DNA of 64,000 nt from assembly GCA_963796105.1 (NCBI GenBank), contig CAWCKJ010000004.1:1440001-1504000 (forward strand). The letters run 5' to 3'. Origin of the DNA: a candidate division FCPU426 bacterium. GTDB taxonomy: Bacteria > Oederibacteriota > Muellerivitia > Muellerivitales > Muellerivitaceae. The notes under the pieces are model-generated. The model saw only the letters and a list, made by a program, of their open reading frames with translations, had not been told where the DNA came from and did no database searches. A program made the translations under genes and the position numbers. Position 1 is the first letter of the stretch. Every line of letters begins with the position of its first letter. This document shows positions 16,443-55,707 of this stretch, one piece after another.

Positions 16443-16551
16443 AAAAACATCTTTTTACCAAAGGTCCCCATGGGGGACCTTTGGTTAATTGTTCTTTCTA
16501 AGCGAGTCCCTAAAGTGAGATTGATTTTGCTTTTTTGAGGAAGGTTCAACC

Positions 16552-17910
16552 ATGGATATCCTGAATCCCTGGCGGCAAATGAATGGGACCATGGCGGCCC
16601 TTCATTCCATCCCGTTTCTTTTCCTGTTAATCTCCATCGCCATTTTTCCTTTCACCGCTTTAACGTCCCGCTGGTGGGAAAAGATGGAAAATAAAATATT
16701 TTTATCATCTGTTTGCGCGGTTGGGGGTGTTTTGCTCTACTTAAGGCCGGCCGGAGATTTACCCAAGGTGTTGGAAACCTACATGGATTACCTGTCTTTC
16801 CTGGTCCTGTTGGGATCGCTTTTCACCGTATCGGGGGGGATTCACATCTCGGGCGCATTCGCCGGCTTTCCCTGGTTAAACACTCTTTTCATGGCAATCG
16901 GGGCGCTATTGTCCAACGTACTTGGCACCACCGGAGCCAGCATCCTATTGATCAGGCCCTTGCTTCATGCGAACCGGCACCGAAAACACAAGGCTCATGT
17001 CGTGTTTTTCTTCATTTGCATCGTGTCCAATTGCGCGGCTTGCCTCATCCCCCTGGGGCCCCCGCTTTATTTGGGGTACTTGAGGGGCGTTCCGTTCCTT
17101 TGGACCCTGCGGTTGGCGGCGCCTTGCGGGTTGGTGATGGCCTGCCTGCTTCTCTCGTTCTATTTTTACGACGAACTGGTTTATAAAAAGGAGGATTTGG
17201 AAAGTCAAGGCTATATGACAAAGGAAGTGGTGGAGGCCCGTAGGAAAATCCATATCCAGGGTTGGGGAAACGTAGGGTATTTGGCGTTGTTAATCATCGG
17301 CATCTTATTCGCCGGATATGTCCTGTTCCCGGCATTGTCCGTATCGCTCGGGGAGCCGCTTGGGGGCCTTTATTCCAAAGCCATCCAAATTCTTTACATG
17401 GGCCTCATCGGGGTCCTTTCCTACCGCACTACTTCCGAGGTAGTGCGCCAGCAAAACCAATTCCACTTTGGCCCCCTTTGGGAAGTGGCCATTCTTTTTT
17501 TCGGCATCTTTGGCGCCATGGTGCCGGTGTTGGCGATTCTCGAAGCCTGGGGCCCTTCCATAGCCATCCGCCAACCCTGGCAATTTTTTTGGGTCTCAGG
17601 AATTTTAAGCGCTTTTCTGGACAACGCTCCCACCTATCTGACCGCTACGGCCCTGGCGGCCAGCCAAAACGGGATTGCCCCCGGTCATCTGGGGGATCTG
17701 GCGGAAAGGATTCCCCAATTCCTGGCAGCTATTTCTTGTGGTTCCTCTTTTATGGGTGCGTTGACTTATATTGGCAATGGGCCGAATATGATGGTCAAGT
17801 CCATCGCCGAACAAGCCCGTGTGAAAATGCCCTCCTTTGGGGGTTACATGCTTTGGTCAATGGCAGTACTCGTACCAACGTTCATCATTGTCACTTTCGT
17901 GTTTTTCTGA
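16552..17910 (+). CDS. Ion-transporter superfamily protein (CitMHS_2 / putative Na+:H+ antiporter)
   Basis: GTTGASILLIRPLL, SAFLDNAPTY, GALTYIGNGPN, MPSFGGY motifs. Confidence 0.85.
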   Translation: MDILNPWRQMNGTMAALHSIPFLFLLISIAIFPFTALTSRWWEKMENKIFLSSVCAVGGVLLYLRPAGDLPKVLETYMDYLSFLVLLGSLFTVSGGIHISGAFAGFPWLNTLFMAIGALLSNVLGTTGASILLIRPLLHANRHRKHKAHVVFFFICIVSNCAACLIPLGPPLYLGYLRGVPFLWTLRLAAPCGLVMACLLLSFYFYDELVYKKEDLESQGYMTKEVVEARRKIHIQGWGNVGYLALLIIGILFAGYVLFPALSVSLGEPLGGLYSKAIQILYMGLIGVLSYRTTSEVVRQQNQFHFGPLWEVAILFFGIFGAMVPVLAILEAWGPSIAIRQPWQFFWVSGILSAFLDNAPTYLTATALAASQNGIAPGHLGDLAERIPQFLAAISCGSSFMGALTYIGNGPNMMVKSIAEQARVKMPSFGGYMLWSMAVLVPTFIIVTFVFF

Positions 17911-18015
17911 GGCTTTCAATTAAAGGCTTCCTCAACGATTTTTCACAGCGGTGTGTTGGGCCCTATGGATCTCAAGAGTACCCTTTGGCGAAAGTGTTTT
18001 TTCTGGAGGTAATTT

Positions 18016-18327
18016 ATGAGCCGATGGTTCATATTGGTTTTAGCTGCGTTTTTGGAGGTGGGAGGCGACGCCCTGGTGCGCTGGGGGTTGAAATCCGGAA
18101 GAATCATCGGCTTTGTCTTGGGCGCGATCGTTCTTTTTTCCTACGGCCTGACCGTGAACCTGCCAGATTGGGATTTCGGGAAATTACTGGGTATTTATAT
18201 CGTCTTGTTTTTCATTATTTCCCAATTGGTGAGTGTCTTTGCGTTCGGCGAGACCATCCCTCCTTCTCGAATGGTTGGCGGTGCCTTGATTATTGGCGGA
18301 GGGCTGTGGATGATGTTCGCGAAGTGA
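18016..18327 (+). CDS. Small 4-TM SMR/DMT-like membrane protein
   Basis: AAFLEVGGDAL, FGKLLGIY, GGALIIGG. Confidence 0.75.
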   Translation: MSRWFILVLAAFLEVGGDALVRWGLKSGRIIGFVLGAIVLFSYGLTVNLPDWDFGKLLGIYIVLFFIISQLVSVFAFGETIPPSRMVGGALIIGGGLWMMFAK

Positions 18328-18348: not shown

Positions 18349-18572
18349 TTCACCACAGGTCCTCTTCGAGGACCACAGGGGCACAGAAAGAGAAAGTATT
18401 TCCCGAGTTTAAACGGCAAAGACTAATTATTTATGATGCGGAAAAATTCGAATTAACCTTAGGTTTTCAATAAAAATTAAAGATTCACCACTTTACTGGC
18501 TCTGTAAAGAAATACCTTAAAATAAATGGGTTAACCGTGCTTCTGTGCGGTGCGAAGCACCACTGTGGTGAA
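18349..18572. repeat. Gene-less copy of the GxxExxY-associated element (left end, AT-rich filler, right end)
   Basis: TTCACCACAG-GTCCTCTTCGAGGAC-CACAGGGGCACAG ... CTGTGCGGTGCGAAGCACCACTGTGGTGAA. Confidence 0.75.
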
Positions 18573-27519: not shown

Positions 27520-27558
27520 CTGTGCCTCTGTGAGCTGCCGTGGGCAGCCTGTGGTGAA
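27520..27558. repeat. Solo right end of the GxxExxY-associated element
   Basis: CTGTGCCTCTGTGA-GCTGCCGTGGGCAGC-CTGTGGTGAA. Confidence 0.65.
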
Positions 27559-48260: not shown

Positions 48261-48600
48261 CAAAGGCGGTTCACCACAGGGACTCAGAGACTCAGCTAAG
48301 GAAAAATATATTCTTATTAACCACAGGTCCCCTACGGGGACCACGGGGGCACAGTGAAAGCTAGGATTTTTCTAAAGAACAAATTTGTTTTGGAGGGAAG
48401 CGAAAAGAAGTAAAAGGCAAAGGCGGTTCACCACAGAACTCCTCGCACCGCAGCGAAGAGTCGTTGACAGAGACTCAGCTAAGGAAAAATATATTCTAAT
48501 TAACCACAGGTCCCCTGCGGGGACCACGGGGGCACAGTGAAAGCTAGGATTTTTCTAAAGAACAAATTTGTTTTGGAGGGAAGCGAAAAGAAGCGAAAGG
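48261..48600. repeat. Tandem duplication (157 + 183 bp) of stacked element left ends
   Basis: 48261-48417 and 48418-48600 are near-identical except for a hairpin insert in copy 2. Confidence 0.85.
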
Positions 48601-48804
48601 CAAAGGATTCCATTAAAAAATTCAAAATTAACAACAGGCCCATCGCACCGCAGCGATGGGCAGTGCTTCGGAACCACAGTAAAAGCTTATAATTTGCCAA
48701 AATAAGAAGTTGGAATAATTGGGGTGCTAATATGAAAGACAATGAAGTTCAGACAGGATTACTAAGAGGGCCTCGGATATAAGGGAAAGGGACATCAAAA
48801 TCTT

Positions 48805-49206
48805 ATGAATATTTCAAAGTTTAAAGCCATACCAAGTGACTTAAACCTTTTATCCGGAAAAGTAATTAGCGCCGCTTATGAAATTCATAAGGAACTGGGC
48901 CCGGGATTGCTTGAAAGCGTATATGAAACATGCTTGGCTTATGAATTGAAAGAATCGGGAATAAAATTTGAACGGCAAGTACCGATACCGGTTCGGTATA
49001 AAAATGTTTTACAGGAAACTGGTTTTCGAATTGATTTACTTGTGGAAAAACAGTTGGTCGTTGAATTGAAAGCGGTTGACGCGATATTGCCGATCCACAA
49101 GGCCCAACTTCTAACCTATCTTAAATTAAGCGAATGCCGATTGGGTCTTCTGATTAACTTCAATGTGGATGTTTTGAAAAACGGAATCAAAAGAGTTTTT
49201 TTATAA
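48805..49206 (+). CDS. GxxExxY protein (PD-(D/E)xK nuclease-like)
   Basis: HKELGPGLLESVYE, RIDLLV..VVELKAV, AQLLTYLKL, GLLINFN. Confidence 0.95.
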   Translation: MNISKFKAIPSDLNLLSGKVISAAYEIHKELGPGLLESVYETCLAYELKESGIKFERQVPIPVRYKNVLQETGFRIDLLVEKQLVVELKAVDAILPIHKAQLLTYLKLSECRLGLLINFNVDVLKNGIKRVFL

Positions 49207-49260
49207 CCGTATCTTTGAGGTCCTCGTAGGGGACTTGTGGTGAAATAGGTTTTATCTTTT

Positions 49261-49454
49261 AACCACGGGTTTCTTTGAAACCACAAAGGCACAGTTAGAA
49301 TTATTTTTTTTAGATTATCTTTAATGGTGCTTTGTAATCCTCGTGGAGGATCTTTATTAAGTACGCCTATTAAAATTTTATTGTTTTGAATGGCGGAACC
49401 GAAAAGATAGTTTTTTAACCGAGCCTCTGTGGTCCTCGAAGAGGACCTGTGGTT
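49261..49454. repeat. Gene-less GxxExxY-associated element
   Basis: AACCACGG-GTTTCTTTGAAAC-CACAAAGGCACAG ... CTCTGTGGTCCTCGAAGAGGACCTGTGGTT. Confidence 0.75.
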
Positions 49455-49476
49455 CAATCTGTAGTTCTGAGGTTTT

Positions 49477-49914
49477 ATGGAAATAAATACTTTTTGCCCC
49501 GAATGCGAGAATGGCATTTTCTTAAATGAACTTCCCCAGGCTGGGTTGATCCCCTGCAAACGCTGCGGCAAGGGTAGGGAAGCTCTTGGTACCGGACGAT
49601 TGGCGGGTGATGGTTCCATTGCCGTCTGCGGGTTCTGCGGATGCGCTGAGTTTTACCGGCAAAAGGACTTCAACACGAAACTGGGCTTGTGGATGATCAT
49701 TCTGATGGTGGTGATCGCGCTTATCTTTAATAAATGGCTTATTCCGATTCTTGTGGGGTTCGCGGCGCTGGATACTATCCTTTATTTCAGCCTGGGTGAC
49801 ATTGTGATCTGTTATTCCTGCAAGGCCATCTACAGGGGACTGCCTATTTCAAGCCAAACGCAGGGTTTTGACCTCAAAATTCATGACAGGTATGAGTTTA
49901 AAAAGAAGAAGTGA
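49477..49914 (+). CDS. Zinc-ribbon membrane protein
   Basis: CPEC, CKRC, CGFCGC..FYRQKDF, two TM, CYSC. Confidence 0.75.
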   Translation: MEINTFCPECENGIFLNELPQAGLIPCKRCGKGREALGTGRLAGDGSIAVCGFCGCAEFYRQKDFNTKLGLWMIILMVVIALIFNKWLIPILVGFAALDTILYFSLGDIVICYSCKAIYRGLPISSQTQGFDLKIHDRYEFKKKK

Positions 49915-49964
49915 GGGTTGGATTCGATAGCCGGTTTCGTATATTTATAAAAAGAAAACATCTT

Positions 49965-50604
49965 TTCACCACAGGTTTCTTCGAAACCACAAAGGCACAG
50001 TTAGAATTATTCTTTTTTAGGTTTTCTTATCGAAGCTCTTTGGTCCGAATAGAGGACCTTTTTTAAGTATGCCTATTAAAGTTTTATTGTCATTGCTGTT
50101 CAAATTAAATAAAAACCAAGGAACAAAGATAATAAAATTAGAAGTTTTAAATTCTATAAGCCGTTAAGCAAAATCAAGCCCTTTGCCACAGATTCAGGGG
50201 ATGCAGGGGATAAACCGATTCATCACAGAGACTCGGAGACCCTGCTACTACATAGCAAAGGGTGAATATTTTTAGATCGTGTTGTATGGCTCAGCCGACG
50301 GCCGGTGGAAAAATTAATTTTTCCACGATCCGCAGGCAGGGCCATAACGCCCAACGGGCGCAAAGGCAAAGCCTTTGTCACGATCTAGTCTTGTTGTATC
50401 CCATGAATCCCATGCATGCCGACCTTCCTATAAGTAATAAAAGAAGTCGGTATGGTACCAATCTCCAAATAAGCTTTATGGAAGATTGGCACATCTGTGG
50501 CTAAAGTCTATTTTGGACAGGTGTGTTTTATTGTGTTGAAGGATGGAACCGAAAAAGTTGTTGTTTAACCGAGCCTGTGGTCCCCGCAGGGGACCTGTGG
50601 TGAA
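49965..50604. repeat. Composite element: copy of the 49261 element carrying a nested insertion
   Basis: Same ends and filler as 49261-49454, with ~440 bp added between GTTTTATTGT direct repeats. Confidence 0.7.
50417..50491. repeat. CA-flanked double-hairpin micro-element, copy 2
   Basis: CA-TGCCGACC...AGTCGGTA..GTACCAATC...GATTGGCA-CA. Confidence 0.75.
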
Positions 50605-50633
50605 ATAGGTTTTGTCTTCGGAAAGGCAAATAA

Positions 50634-51497
50634 GTGACCGATTCAACCGAAACGCCGAATAACAACCCAGATCCAATCTATGGGAACGAATCGAAGCTGT
50701 CCTTATTCCTGAAACTATTCATCATTCCAGCCTTGATCGTGGCGGTGGCCCTGGGAATTTTCATGATGGGTTCTTTCGCGCTTCAGCATCCCAAATCCGC
50801 GGAGCAATACCTCGAGGAACTCCGTAGCGACAGTACCGAGAGGAGATGGCAGGCCGCCTATGAGTTATCCCGCATGTTGAACCAAGGCGAGAAAATCGCG
50901 GTTGACGATAAACTTCGGGGACAATTGGTCCAAACCTTCGCCGATGCCAAGAAAGACGACCCGAGGATCAGGGAATACCTGGCATTGGTTCTCGGACACC
51001 TTAAGGAAAAATCAGCCGTCCCGGCCCTTTGCGACGCGGTGAAGGACGAATCCAATGACGTAAAGACCTACAGCCTCTGGGCCCTCGGCAATATTGAGGA
51101 CCCTGCTGGAGGCCCCGCGGCATTGGGAGCCCTGGATGAGACCGATCCAACCGTCCGGCGGATGGCGGTGGGGGCATTGAGCGCCCTGCGTTATGCCCCC
51201 GCCAAATTTCCATTGGAAAAGGAATTGGAATCAAGCAACCAGGCTTTGCGGTATGACTCCGCGGTGGCTCTGGCCCGGCTGGGGGATGACAAGGCCATAC
51301 CGACTCTTTTGGAAATGATGAACTTGAAAGCCACCGGACAGCCTTCGGACGCGATGATCCAATCGGCCAAACTGGCCGCCTTGGAAGGGGCGGGGGTACT
51401 CCATAACCCCGAGGTGCGCTCGCAAGTGGTGAGCCTCAGCAAGAACGACCCGGACCTAAAGGTGCGCGAAGCCGCGATTGAAGCGCTAAAAAAATAG
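50634..51497 (+). CDS. Membrane-anchored HEAT-repeat protein
   Basis: TM segment, RWQAAYELS, repeated ALG/LA HEAT units. Confidence 0.85.
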   Translation: MTDSTETPNNNPDPIYGNESKLSLFLKLFIIPALIVAVALGIFMMGSFALQHPKSAEQYLEELRSDSTERRWQAAYELSRMLNQGEKIAVDDKLRGQLVQTFADAKKDDPRIREYLALVLGHLKEKSAVPALCDAVKDESNDVKTYSLWALGNIEDPAGGPAALGALDETDPTVRRMAVGALSALRYAPAKFPLEKELESSNQALRYDSAVALARLGDDKAIPTLLEMMNLKATGQPSDAMIQSAKLAALEGAGVLHNPEVRSQVVSLSKNDPDLKVREAAIEALKK

Positions 51498-51511
51498 AAA
51501 ATCAAAGGCTA

Positions 51512-51822
51512 TCACCACATGCCAGCCTTCAATAGAACTTTAATGAGGCTGGTATCGTACCGATCTCATTACATTTTTTAATATGATCGGCACAGGTTTC
51601 TTCGAAACCACAGGAGCACAGTTAAAGCTTTTAGTTCTCTATGGCTGAAAAAAATCCTAATTAAGCTTCAAAATATTCCAAAGAATTCTCTGTGAAAAAT
51701 TTGAAATCAATACCAAATCTTATCGCTTCAAAGAAGATTTAATAAACGTTAAAGAAATTGGTTATTCCTAATAAAAAGTTTAAACTGTGTCTCTGTGCGG
51801 TGCGAAGCACCGCTGTGGTGAA
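51512..51822. repeat. Gene-less element whose left end is interrupted by micro-element copy 3 (51520-51592)
   Basis: TCACCACA[73 bp]CAGGTTTCTTCGAAACCACAGGAGCACAG ... CTGTGTCTCTGTGCGGTGCGAAGCACCGCTGTGGTGAA. Confidence 0.8.
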
Positions 51823-54645: not shown

Positions 54646-55633
54646 CATGCCTATCCGAACAACGCTTGCGCAGTAATGGGTTTTGCCAAAGCGCAAGCGG
54701 TTAAGGCCCGGTGAAATAAGGAATCTGGGTCATGGCGACGATTGAACCGATAAGTATATTCGCTCAAGTATCCAGGCAGATATTTCACGTTGACTCCATG
54801 ATGGGTTCCTAGGATCCAAGCCTTGGCGTTGGAAATGAATCGGTGGACCCAAGGTAACCAGTGATTTAACACCACTGGGTCATTGGCTGTTACCTGGTAC
54901 TCCACATCCACGTTTTCCAAGTTTCTCAAGCTGGGACTGGCATCCGTGTTTATCATGGCGCCTTTCTGGATTGCTTGATCGACGAATGCTTGGGCTTCCC
55001 ACTTGGTTTCTGCGGTCACCTTTATCTTTGCAAAACCCGCTTTCTCTTTTTTGCGCCCTTTCTCATCTATCCATTCTTTGCTTTCAACCGCCACCAGCAC
55101 TTCAGCCTGGTTTTCCTTTTCTCTCTTGCCGAATACAGCCCCATCCAACTCAATGATTTCCTTGAGTTGGTAATTTTCATCCCTTTGTCGAAGACTTTCC
55201 CGAATCTTATGCAACATCCTCCAAACGGTATCGTAGGAGGGCATTCCCAATTGCCGCTGAAGTTCCAGGGCTGAAATGCCCCTTTTCCCTTGCATCACCA
55301 ATCCAATCATCCTCAACCAGGTTAAGATTGGGATCTTGGATTTCCGGAAGATCGTTCCGGCTCGAAGCCGTATTTGCTTTCGACAATAGTCACATTCCCG
55401 CACTTCGGGGCGGTTTTTGTGTTGCCAGAAACTTTCTCCTTCACATTGTGGGCAAACAAAGTCTTTTCCGGCAAAACGGCTCTTCCACACCCATTGACGT
55501 GCCTTTTCTTCTGTATCGATTTCCTTGAAAATCTCAATCCCCTTCATCCGTTGGTAGTTCATAATTTGCCCCTCCAACAATGAGTATACTCCTGTATTCC
55601 TTTATTTCAACAGGTACCGTTTGGAGAGGCATT
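54646..55633 (-). mobile_element. IS1595-family insertion sequence
   Basis: IRs ATGCCTATCCGAAC / GTTTGGAGAGGCAT; 8-bp TSD CATTTTTA. Confidence 0.92.
54651..55580 (-). CDS. IS1595 transposase
   Basis: CPQC...CDYC zinc ribbon, ISALELQRQL, ELDG, NTDA, YLSEYTYRFNRR. Confidence 0.95.
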   Translation of the reverse strand: MLEGQIMNYQRMKGIEIFKEIDTEEKARQWVWKSRFAGKDFVCPQCEGESFWQHKNRPEVRECDYCRKQIRLRAGTIFRKSKIPILTWLRMIGLVMQGKRGISALELQRQLGMPSYDTVWRMLHKIRESLRQRDENYQLKEIIELDGAVFGKREKENQAEVLVAVESKEWIDEKGRKKEKAGFAKIKVTAETKWEAQAFVDQAIQKGAMINTDASPSLRNLENVDVEYQVTANDPVVLNHWLPWVHRFISNAKAWILGTHHGVNVKYLPGYLSEYTYRFNRRHDPDSLFHRALTACALAKPITAQALFG

Positions 55634-55671: not shown

Positions 55672-55707
55672 AACCACAGGTCCTCTTCGAGGACCACCGA
55701 GGCACAG
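55672..55707. repeat. Solo left end of the GxxExxY-associated element
   Basis: AACCACAG-GTCCTCTTCGAGGAC-CACCGAGGCACAG, nearly identical to 18349. Confidence 0.7.

Follow-up and report, generated by a model that had tools for sequence, protein, structure and literature searches.

The window analysed here, 64,000 nucleotides of a candidate division FCPU426 genome (contig CAWCKJ010000004.1, positions 1,440,001 to 1,504,000), holds at 48261-51822 a cluster of short inverted repeats, here called arms; one pair encloses a small gene of the GxxExxY family and other pairs form gene-less "shells". We propose, with the chances of being right or wrong about evenly balanced, that this is a slow repeat-armed cassette, in which a nuclease of the Cas4/RecB fold would cut its own folded arms, host repair doing the rest. 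Observed directly are the architecture, the empty and filled states, the persistence, the mosaic arms, the exchange of plain for hairpin arms, and covarying hairpins of DNA type. An original prediction made from the window had placed the gene inside a left/right pair and regarded it as a cassette accompanied by gene-less, intergenic derivatives; both statements hold, and filled and empty states are found among relatives.

Repeat arms and their association with GxxExxY genes

Each arm is an array of CACAG units with an optional hairpin sitting in its spacer: an outer ACCACRG is followed by the spacer and then by one or two further CACAG-like units. The period of plain arms is 8-10 bp, and a spacer with a hairpin lengthens the arm by 10-13 bp. 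All 13 ends of the original prediction are present within 0-3 bases of the positions given there; its left and right ends, taken for separate types, are one motif in two orientations, and its list lacked three arms, at 48273 (no hairpin), 48430 and 48630. In the window's own genome (G000, 4.98 Mb; the host genome below) a strict arm pattern gave 68 matches against 1 and 2 in two block shuffles, 2 of the 68 being chance-like. The pattern freed of the hairpin requirement gave 60 against 0 with the reversed pattern, and a DNA hidden Markov model (HMM), run without a decoy, gave 98 at E<=0.001 and 138 at E<=1. Strict, HMM and plain arms combined amount to 164 arm-like sites, 16 of them within crudely called open reading frames (ORFs). 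An Rfam scan of the window at the gathering score returned 0 matches.

Neighbouring arms less than 1.5 kb apart in the host genome form 24 convergent, 6 divergent and 27 same-direction pairs. One convergent pair contains the GxxExxY gene and one a 190-aa ORF; the remaining 22 are without ORF-sized cargo among those examined, or hold other repeats, and no GxxExxY remnant was found in 23 of the 24 interiors. Five of the 24 span 102-109 bp and 17 more, all gene-less, 171-755 bp. The 190-aa ORF (pair at G000:C4:1067484-1068468) might be cargo or coincidence; by eye, it resembles an Fe/Mn superoxide dismutase. At G000:C4:1183356-1183931 five hairpin arms stand in tandem with a period of ~135 bp.

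The PF13366 profile finds two GxxExxY genes in the host genome, each within an arm family of its own; both of these families are numerous (164 sites for the CACAG arms, 75 for the second family). The second gene (G000:C4:589026-589328, minus strand) has arms of 10-bp period and is apparently frameshifted near its start. The original prediction proposed looking for an enrichment of the ends around GxxExxY genes, and such an enrichment exists: across 89 loci, 71 from the host's taxonomic family and 18 from other phyla, inverted arms with a score of at least 30 bracket the gene in 76; among mismatched flank pairs the same score was reached by 44 of 600, and among control ORFs by 12 of 500. Related proteins tend to have the same arm type: on the protein tree the labels change 20 times, against 42.6 after shuffling (a quick tree, 22 of its 89 rows unlabelled); at the deepest split the unit ends in T in 17 of 18 labelled rows on one side and in G in 49 of 49 on the other. 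Arm number also goes with the gene in 17 genomes at least 90% complete (counts summed by hand; 2 of 12 gene fragments gave no match): those with a CACAG-armed gene or relic have 2-104 CACAG arms (at least 18 in 9 of 10; median ~53), and those in which no such gene was found have 0-32 (at most 2 in 5 of 7; median ~1), the p value of 0.002 being uncorrected and the kin genomes not independent. A phage or plasmid vehicle was rejected on the near-absence of arms and genes there: viral contigs gave 0 hairpin arms and 1 armed gene, and 8 of 72,556 plasmid records held a GxxExxY homolog.

The protein matches PF13366 and TIGR04256 above their curated cut-offs (152 and 157 bits), and its predicted structure (predicted local distance difference test, pLDDT, 92.8) has Cas4 SSO0001 as its top Foldseek match (E 3e-4). 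With VIA, SSO0001 gave Z 7.7 (root-mean-square deviation 4.8 across 101 residues), level with restriction enzymes, and Hjc reached 6.1. Residues D77, E87, K89, Q101 and Y105, which do not vary across an alignment of 49 proteins, match the RecB motifs of Cas4 in position; Cas4 proteins cut single-stranded DNA (ssDNA) and require these motifs (PMC4176176). Two cysteines are present, one of them conserved, and not the four of the Cas4 iron-sulphur (Fe-S) motif. The protein is predicted to be a minimal nuclease of Cas4/RecB type; a common fold alone does not identify its substrate. Searches of PDB by sequence and of the ESM Atlas gave no match to it.

Hairpins in the arms and a proposed mechanism

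Arms with a spacer of 13, 15 or 16 nt, collected by a search that did not demand a hairpin, contain one in 68 of 72 cases in the host genome, as do ~81 of 82 spacers of the same length in 14 other genomes (by eye). The loop reads GNA on the GTGGT strand in 57 of the 72, and GNA loops on this strand sit on 15 different stems, against none on the opposite strand. Across 23 aligned arms 97.5% of cells pair, with a covariation score of 0.84 against 0.20 shuffled, a control that is lenient because the rows come mostly from the loop-fixed pattern and are related. The varied stems hence keep pairing, as originally noted, and the loop rule of that account (GNA in right ends, its reverse complement in left ends) is followed by 11 of the 13 arms, the exceptions being 49262 and 27520. 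The hairpins are nearly confined to arms (86 of 87); they are present in 15 of 31 genomes of the host's family, and a stricter pattern found them in 0 of 68 genomes of other families.

Since pairing is kept by compensatory changes and strand polarity is fixed, the arms likely fold as ssDNA. C(GNA)G loops are a motif of DNA type; in RNA, the equivalent of a related mini-hairpin is far less stable (PMC13037366). The hairpins appear to be optional and not the recognition signal, because 65 of the 76 armed GxxExxY loci have none, 11 having a GC-rich hairpin near an arm and just 1 the GNA type; of the 17 copies of the hairpin arm that spread in genome G034, 16 have a loop other than GNA. We take the hairpin data as evidence for arms folding as ssDNA and not for the loop as a signal. 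Of the earlier idea that the ends are recognised as strand-specific ssDNA hairpins, the compensatory changes and the fixed polarity survive, and the GNA loop as signal is given up. A DNA energy model folds some shells into three- or four-way junctions and others into a long imperfect stem; for the shell at 18352-18569 a four-way junction is predicted on each strand. Loci L023 (G017), L049 and L058, which have other arm types and come from other phyla, also have hairpin inserts at this spacer position, the loop polarity in L023 being that of the CACAG arms.

These observations bear on two other readings of the arms. They could be double-stranded tandem sites, bound or nicked and perhaps autoregulatory, in which hairpins are tolerated because they lengthen the arm by roughly one turn of the helix, with their folding used for another purpose. 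The 8-10-bp plain period, the 10-13 bp added by hairpin spacers, the lack of a hairpin in the majority of arms and the tie between restriction enzymes and Cas4 in the fold search would all suit such arrays; however, phasing requires neither pairing nor a strand-fixed loop, and spacers of the relevant length are nearly always hairpins, which hardly occur outside arms, making this account improbable. Alternatively, the arms could pair in the operon transcript, the insert being looped out, or cut out in the manner of a 23S rRNA intervening sequence, with its spread incidental. The armed gene cassettes are indeed co-oriented within operons, with a same-strand stop codon just upstream in 67 of 76 (opposite-strand control 34) and a start just downstream in 66 (control 37), and non-nuclease genes share the design (see below). 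Yet the triloop is of DNA type, of 148 intergenic arms, 61 have convergent or divergent genes on their two sides, and loop polarity is tied to the arm and not clearly to transcription (solo arms 30 vs 18, with crude gene calls); arm orientation showed no clear link with transcription or GC skew, the skew being weak and the gene calls crude. We consider an RNA device very improbable.

Under the cassette reading, the protein would bind and nick its own arms once these are folded in ssDNA. The two arms of a unit would anneal to form a single long stem, with the optional hairpins protruding from it as three- or four-way junctions, and cuts at or beside the CACAG units would start recombination between arms. 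Such recombination could yield internal deletions (shells), tandem copies and module swaps, as well as rare moves to new junctions without regular target duplication; the surviving copies would mostly be those right after a stop codon, co-oriented and supplying the next gene with a ribosome site. In a likely second step, an unrelated mini-transposon with terminal inverted repeats (TIRs) and a TAA/TTA duplication would have captured and amplified some of the empty shells. A broader proposal, which we hold with more doubt than confidence, is that GxxExxY proteins are ssDNA nucleases of ~130 residues, specific for both sequence and structure, each paired with a tandem-repeat arm of its own and spreading without a transposase by cutting folded arms; the hairpin lineage would then offer natural three- and four-way-junction substrates, and its shells would have been hijacked by a second mini-transposon.

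Shells, their carrier and the history of the cluster

The near-identical shells of G034 extend ~24 nt beyond their arms, to short inverted repeats bordered by a 3-bp duplication. Of 18 paired units, 15 are in register with a matching duplication (8 TTA and 7 TAA, orientation fixed) and 3 are off register. The same ends surround 13 of 13 nearest convergent pairs in G006, G037 and G041, and 6 of 9 pairs in the host genome, a tenth pair that spans a host gene being excluded. This TAA/TTA TIR mini-transposon has spread through the family (G034, G006, G035, G037, G041 and G000, e.g. G000:C4:1589614-1589764) and encloses several arm families in 27 of 31 cases and unrelated hairpin repeats in 4 (by eye). 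We presume that the carrier resembles an IS5 subgroup. Its transposase was not found via PF13340, PF07592 (where no control matched), the ends of PF01609 loci or 24 PF05598 loci; PF13359 loci were covered by this search only through overlap with other loci, and assemblies often lose insertion sequence (IS) copies. A look-up for such carriage of shells likewise found nothing.

One may thus ask if arms, shells and gene are all passengers, cargo of DDE-type mini-transposons or of Y1 transposases acting in trans, with GxxExxY having another job or none and the junction copies being eroded insertions. The TAA/TTA ends just described, including those around unrelated repeats, speak for this, as does an IS4-like mini-element that carries a second-family shell within this very cluster; in addition, the flanks outside the arms at 49241 and 50601 resemble the inner part of TAA/TTA ends. 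On the other hand, such ends stand on both sides in 0 of 89 gene-bearing loci, with a one-sided remnant in 3, and the arm-richest genomes are nearly without them (G010, 99 arms and 0 ends; G012, 97 arms and 1 end). The interiors of the G010 shells are for the most part unrelated, and a stop codon is no more than 15 nt away from 10 of 12 of these shells. The 16 matches to PF01797 (Y1) in the host genome have their own ends, the nearest arm being at least 848 nt away, and the matching of arm to protein would go unexplained. Passenger status is therefore unlikely in our view, if well short of negligible. Because TAA/TTA ends surround carried shells but stand on both sides of no gene locus and were not found at the arms of this cluster, two classes of shells can be distinguished. 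Direct repeats within 25 nt of the 24 pairs of the host genome showed no excess, this distance being too narrow for the TAA/TTA class. As a separate element disperses some shells, their number alone does not show GxxExxY mobility, and the original view of shells as non-autonomous derivatives of GxxExxY is narrowed by that part of their dispersal. The multi-copy Y1 transposases of the host genome (~318 aa, e.g. C12:332943 and C4:1409170) have their own terminal repeats, 3 of them with a hairpin insert inside one repeat.

The operon at the cluster, conserved in the host's family, consists of a membrane gene, a Zn-ribbon gene, a HEAT gene and a hydrolase. Orthologous empty sites, which the original prediction suggested seeking, exist: of 12 relatives, 9 have nothing inserted at the first junction, and in several of these the stop and start codons touch or overlap. 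Of the other three, one has a plain-armed GxxExxY with an internal deletion, one a shell and one a solo arm, the latter two of other arm types, and a further relative has a full plain-armed cassette one junction along. G001, of the same genus, is too distant for base-level junctions and shows no clear HEAT-gene ortholog. One low-share DNA sequencing run yielded only short pieces, none of which joined across a cassette. A metagenome contig, L149, has a compact cassette of ~475 bp with hairpin arms and an intact gene at the same site, the sole GxxExxY among 31 stretches found with the hairpin-arm pattern. Its protein is 76% identical, with dN 0.16 against dS ~1.7 (nonsynonymous and synonymous divergence), as for the flanking genes; this copy is hence old and conserved, and its GxxExxY gene is under purifying selection. 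The host tree fits repeated gain and repeated loss at the junction alike (the L149 row being 27% filled).

Such selection and long residence at one site could also suit a domesticated host function of the Ssn type, in which the protein restricts or edits incoming arm-bearing ssDNA and mobility is mostly ancient; SsnA lowers transformation by repeat-bearing DNA (PMC11893778). However, broken or deleted copies are common, and sites, arm types and copy number (0-8 PF13366 matches per genome) turn over between genera, so that we give this explanation hardly any credence.

Several points weigh against the self-cutting cassette. The cutting of its own arms is itself a prediction from sequence and fold, and the fold Z-scores are below 8 and tied with restriction enzymes acting on double-stranded DNA. 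In the bracket test the window's own cassette scored 19, below the threshold, owing to the displacement and decay of its arms, and this copy looks static, being common to L149 at near-saturated dS. Many loci of the protein tree share an insertion site, so the matching of arm and protein is in part vertical descent. G003 (98% complete) has 32 CACAG arms and G040 (99% complete) 13, with no CACAG-armed gene among 4 and 3 PF13366 matches respectively, and G033 holds the gene, yet only 2 counted arms. The TIR element with its TAA/TTA duplication explains the clearly recent shell copies without GxxExxY. Finally, four-helix-bundle genes, which we take not to be nucleases, also lie within inverted tandem arrays in the host genome, so that the architecture alone does not imply cutting. 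The genes concerned (PF05635; G000:C2:130910-131215 and C8:96620-96928) are each inside inverted 7-bp tandem arrays, and a small GIY-YIG gene at G000:C4:166527-166745 (minus strand) lies between hairpin repeats as a likely Ssn-type unit. Y1, GIY-YIG and four-helix genes were rejected as cargo of the CACAG arms, none being inside them.

Relative to the compact L149 form, the cassette of the window has gained a tandem duplication, one more arm and a shell (Table 1). The first arm of the duplication differs between the copies: that of copy 1 (48273-48295) is plain, and that of copy 2 (48430-48478) contains a hairpin module. The first shell is flanked by a direct repeat of 9 bp (49247-49255 and 49470-49478) that includes the ribosome site of the next gene, which leaves it ambiguous. 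The reverse arm of the second shell (50569-50601) is a mosaic of the arms at 49419 and 49207. Two pairs earlier described as holding mere filler contain other mobile elements: the second shell has the 444-bp element, with a second-family shell (50185-50501) inside it, and the third has its forward arm (51514-51621) split by a twin-hairpin insert of ~75 bp, the hairpin half resuming from 51591. The palindrome at 16457-16485 is likely the scar of a collapse between two arms.

Table 1. Arms, shells and associated elements in the window (strand "." where no orientation applies)
Feature	Position	Strand	Remarks
GxxExxY gene	48805..49206	+	133 aa, PD-(D/E)xK fold, PF13366/TIGR04256
Hairpin arm, partner of reverse arm at 49207	48503..48537	+	stem class same as L149 arm
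Degenerate hairpin arm	49207..49241	-	immediately 3' of GxxExxY stop codon
Tandem duplication	48261..48604	+	two near-identical units, two arms per unit
Hairpin arm within tandem duplication	48320-48354	+	
Additional degenerate arm	48630..48679	+	nested hairpin with 9-bp stem
Empty shell	49262..49453	.	two convergent hairpin arms with differing stems
Reverse arm of shell 49262-49453	49419-49453	-	
Second shell, at next gene junction	49968..50601	.	interior homologous to 49262-49453 (78-83%)
Nested TIR mini-transposon	50091..50534	.	444 bp, 9-bp duplication
Third shell, HEAT/hydrolase junction	51514..51819	.	reverse arm 51785-51819
Empty shell	18352..18569	.	two different hairpins; reverse arm 18535-18569
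Solo hairpin arm	27520..27555	-	non-GNA loop
Solo hairpin arm	55673..55707	+	
29-bp palindrome	16457..16485	.	two outer arm halves around one hairpin; 1 in genome by strict pattern
Forward arms confirmed (starts)	18352, 48320, 48503, 49262, 49968, 51514 (interrupted), 55673	+	
Reverse arms confirmed	18535-18569, 27520-27555, 49207-49241, 49419-49453, 50569-50601, 51785-51819	-	

The 444-bp element belongs to a family with 19 left ends in the host genome, 14 traced to a right end, and many copies in G001; its ends resemble those of a resident 415-aa DDE transposase family with 10 copies in G000. The twin-hairpin element (51518-51591) has 45 copies by a strict pattern, 25 with arm-like flanks, and also occurs within G034 shells. 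The syntenic place in G001 lacks a citrate-transporter-like gene and a small ORF that in the window (16552-18327) separate the scar at 16457 from the shell at 18352. An IS1595-family transposase lies at 54651-55580, with a near-identical copy at another place in sequencing run X1.

Comparison with known systems

A search of the literature on GxxExxY, PDDEXK_3 and TIGR04256, to which most subscription papers and supplements were outside, gave no account of these arms; one paper mentions GxxExxY in passing, and a published mention of PDDEXK_3 lists its function as "Unknown". An uncharacterised and widespread protein family gains a named candidate substrate, cognate and non-cognate arm pairs serving as built-in controls, and the locus adds sequence evidence for arms folding as DNA. 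If the proposal is true, this would be a third nuclease superfamily, after HUH and GIY-YIG, to have adopted a gene-plus-repeat lifestyle, and it would supply orthogonal ssDNA cutters of very small size. The case also illustrates that counts of empty shells can mislead, since another element amplifies some of them.

The fold, the RecB motifs II and III and the QxxxY motif are shared with Cas4/RecB nucleases (SSO0001, Pcal_0546; PMC4176176); in contrast to these, the protein here lacks the four-cysteine motif at a length of 133 aa, and no CRISPR context was seen. The carrier of shells resembles TIR miniature elements with a 3-bp duplication, of PIF/Harbinger-like type (PMC2213677), in its short TIRs, its 140-310 bp and its TAA/TTA duplication, a likeness that fits the carried shells only and not the gene-bearing cassettes or this cluster. 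The loop and closing pair of the arm hairpins are those of the DNA mini-hairpins GCGNAGC/C(GNA)G (PMC13037366, PMC3201870), which here are swappable modules in a repeat arm and not a known priming or promoter signal.

The closest parallels are with two gene-plus-repeat systems. In Ssn/SRM (PMC11893778), too, a small single-domain nuclease gene is flanked on both sides by its own oriented repeat, many gene-less intergenic copies exist and the authors liken the unit to a mobile element; however, the nuclease there is of GIY-YIG type, against PD-(D/E)xK here by profile and fold, and SsnA requires the hairpin sequence itself, whereas here the arms consist of 8-10-bp tandem units in which a hairpin is optional. 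With the repetitive extragenic palindromic sequences of REP/REPIN-RAYT (10.1101/2022.05.22.493013, PMC3733652) the arms share two conserved ends, nested palindromes and a variable spacer within one imperfect palindrome, common heterodimers, long persistence and one gene with many repeats; inverted ends within ~130 bp are likewise found here, in the five shortest pairs of the host genome. The differences are that there is no GTAG/CGTC tag, the arms starting with ACCACRG, that the enclosed gene is no HUH transposase and most arms of the class are without a nested hairpin, and that the Y1 genes present keep to their own ends away from the arms. Thus, the cassette works like Ssn/SRM and REPIN/RAYT and belongs to neither, being set apart by its fold, its dispensable hairpin, its lack of the tag and its lack of a transposase.

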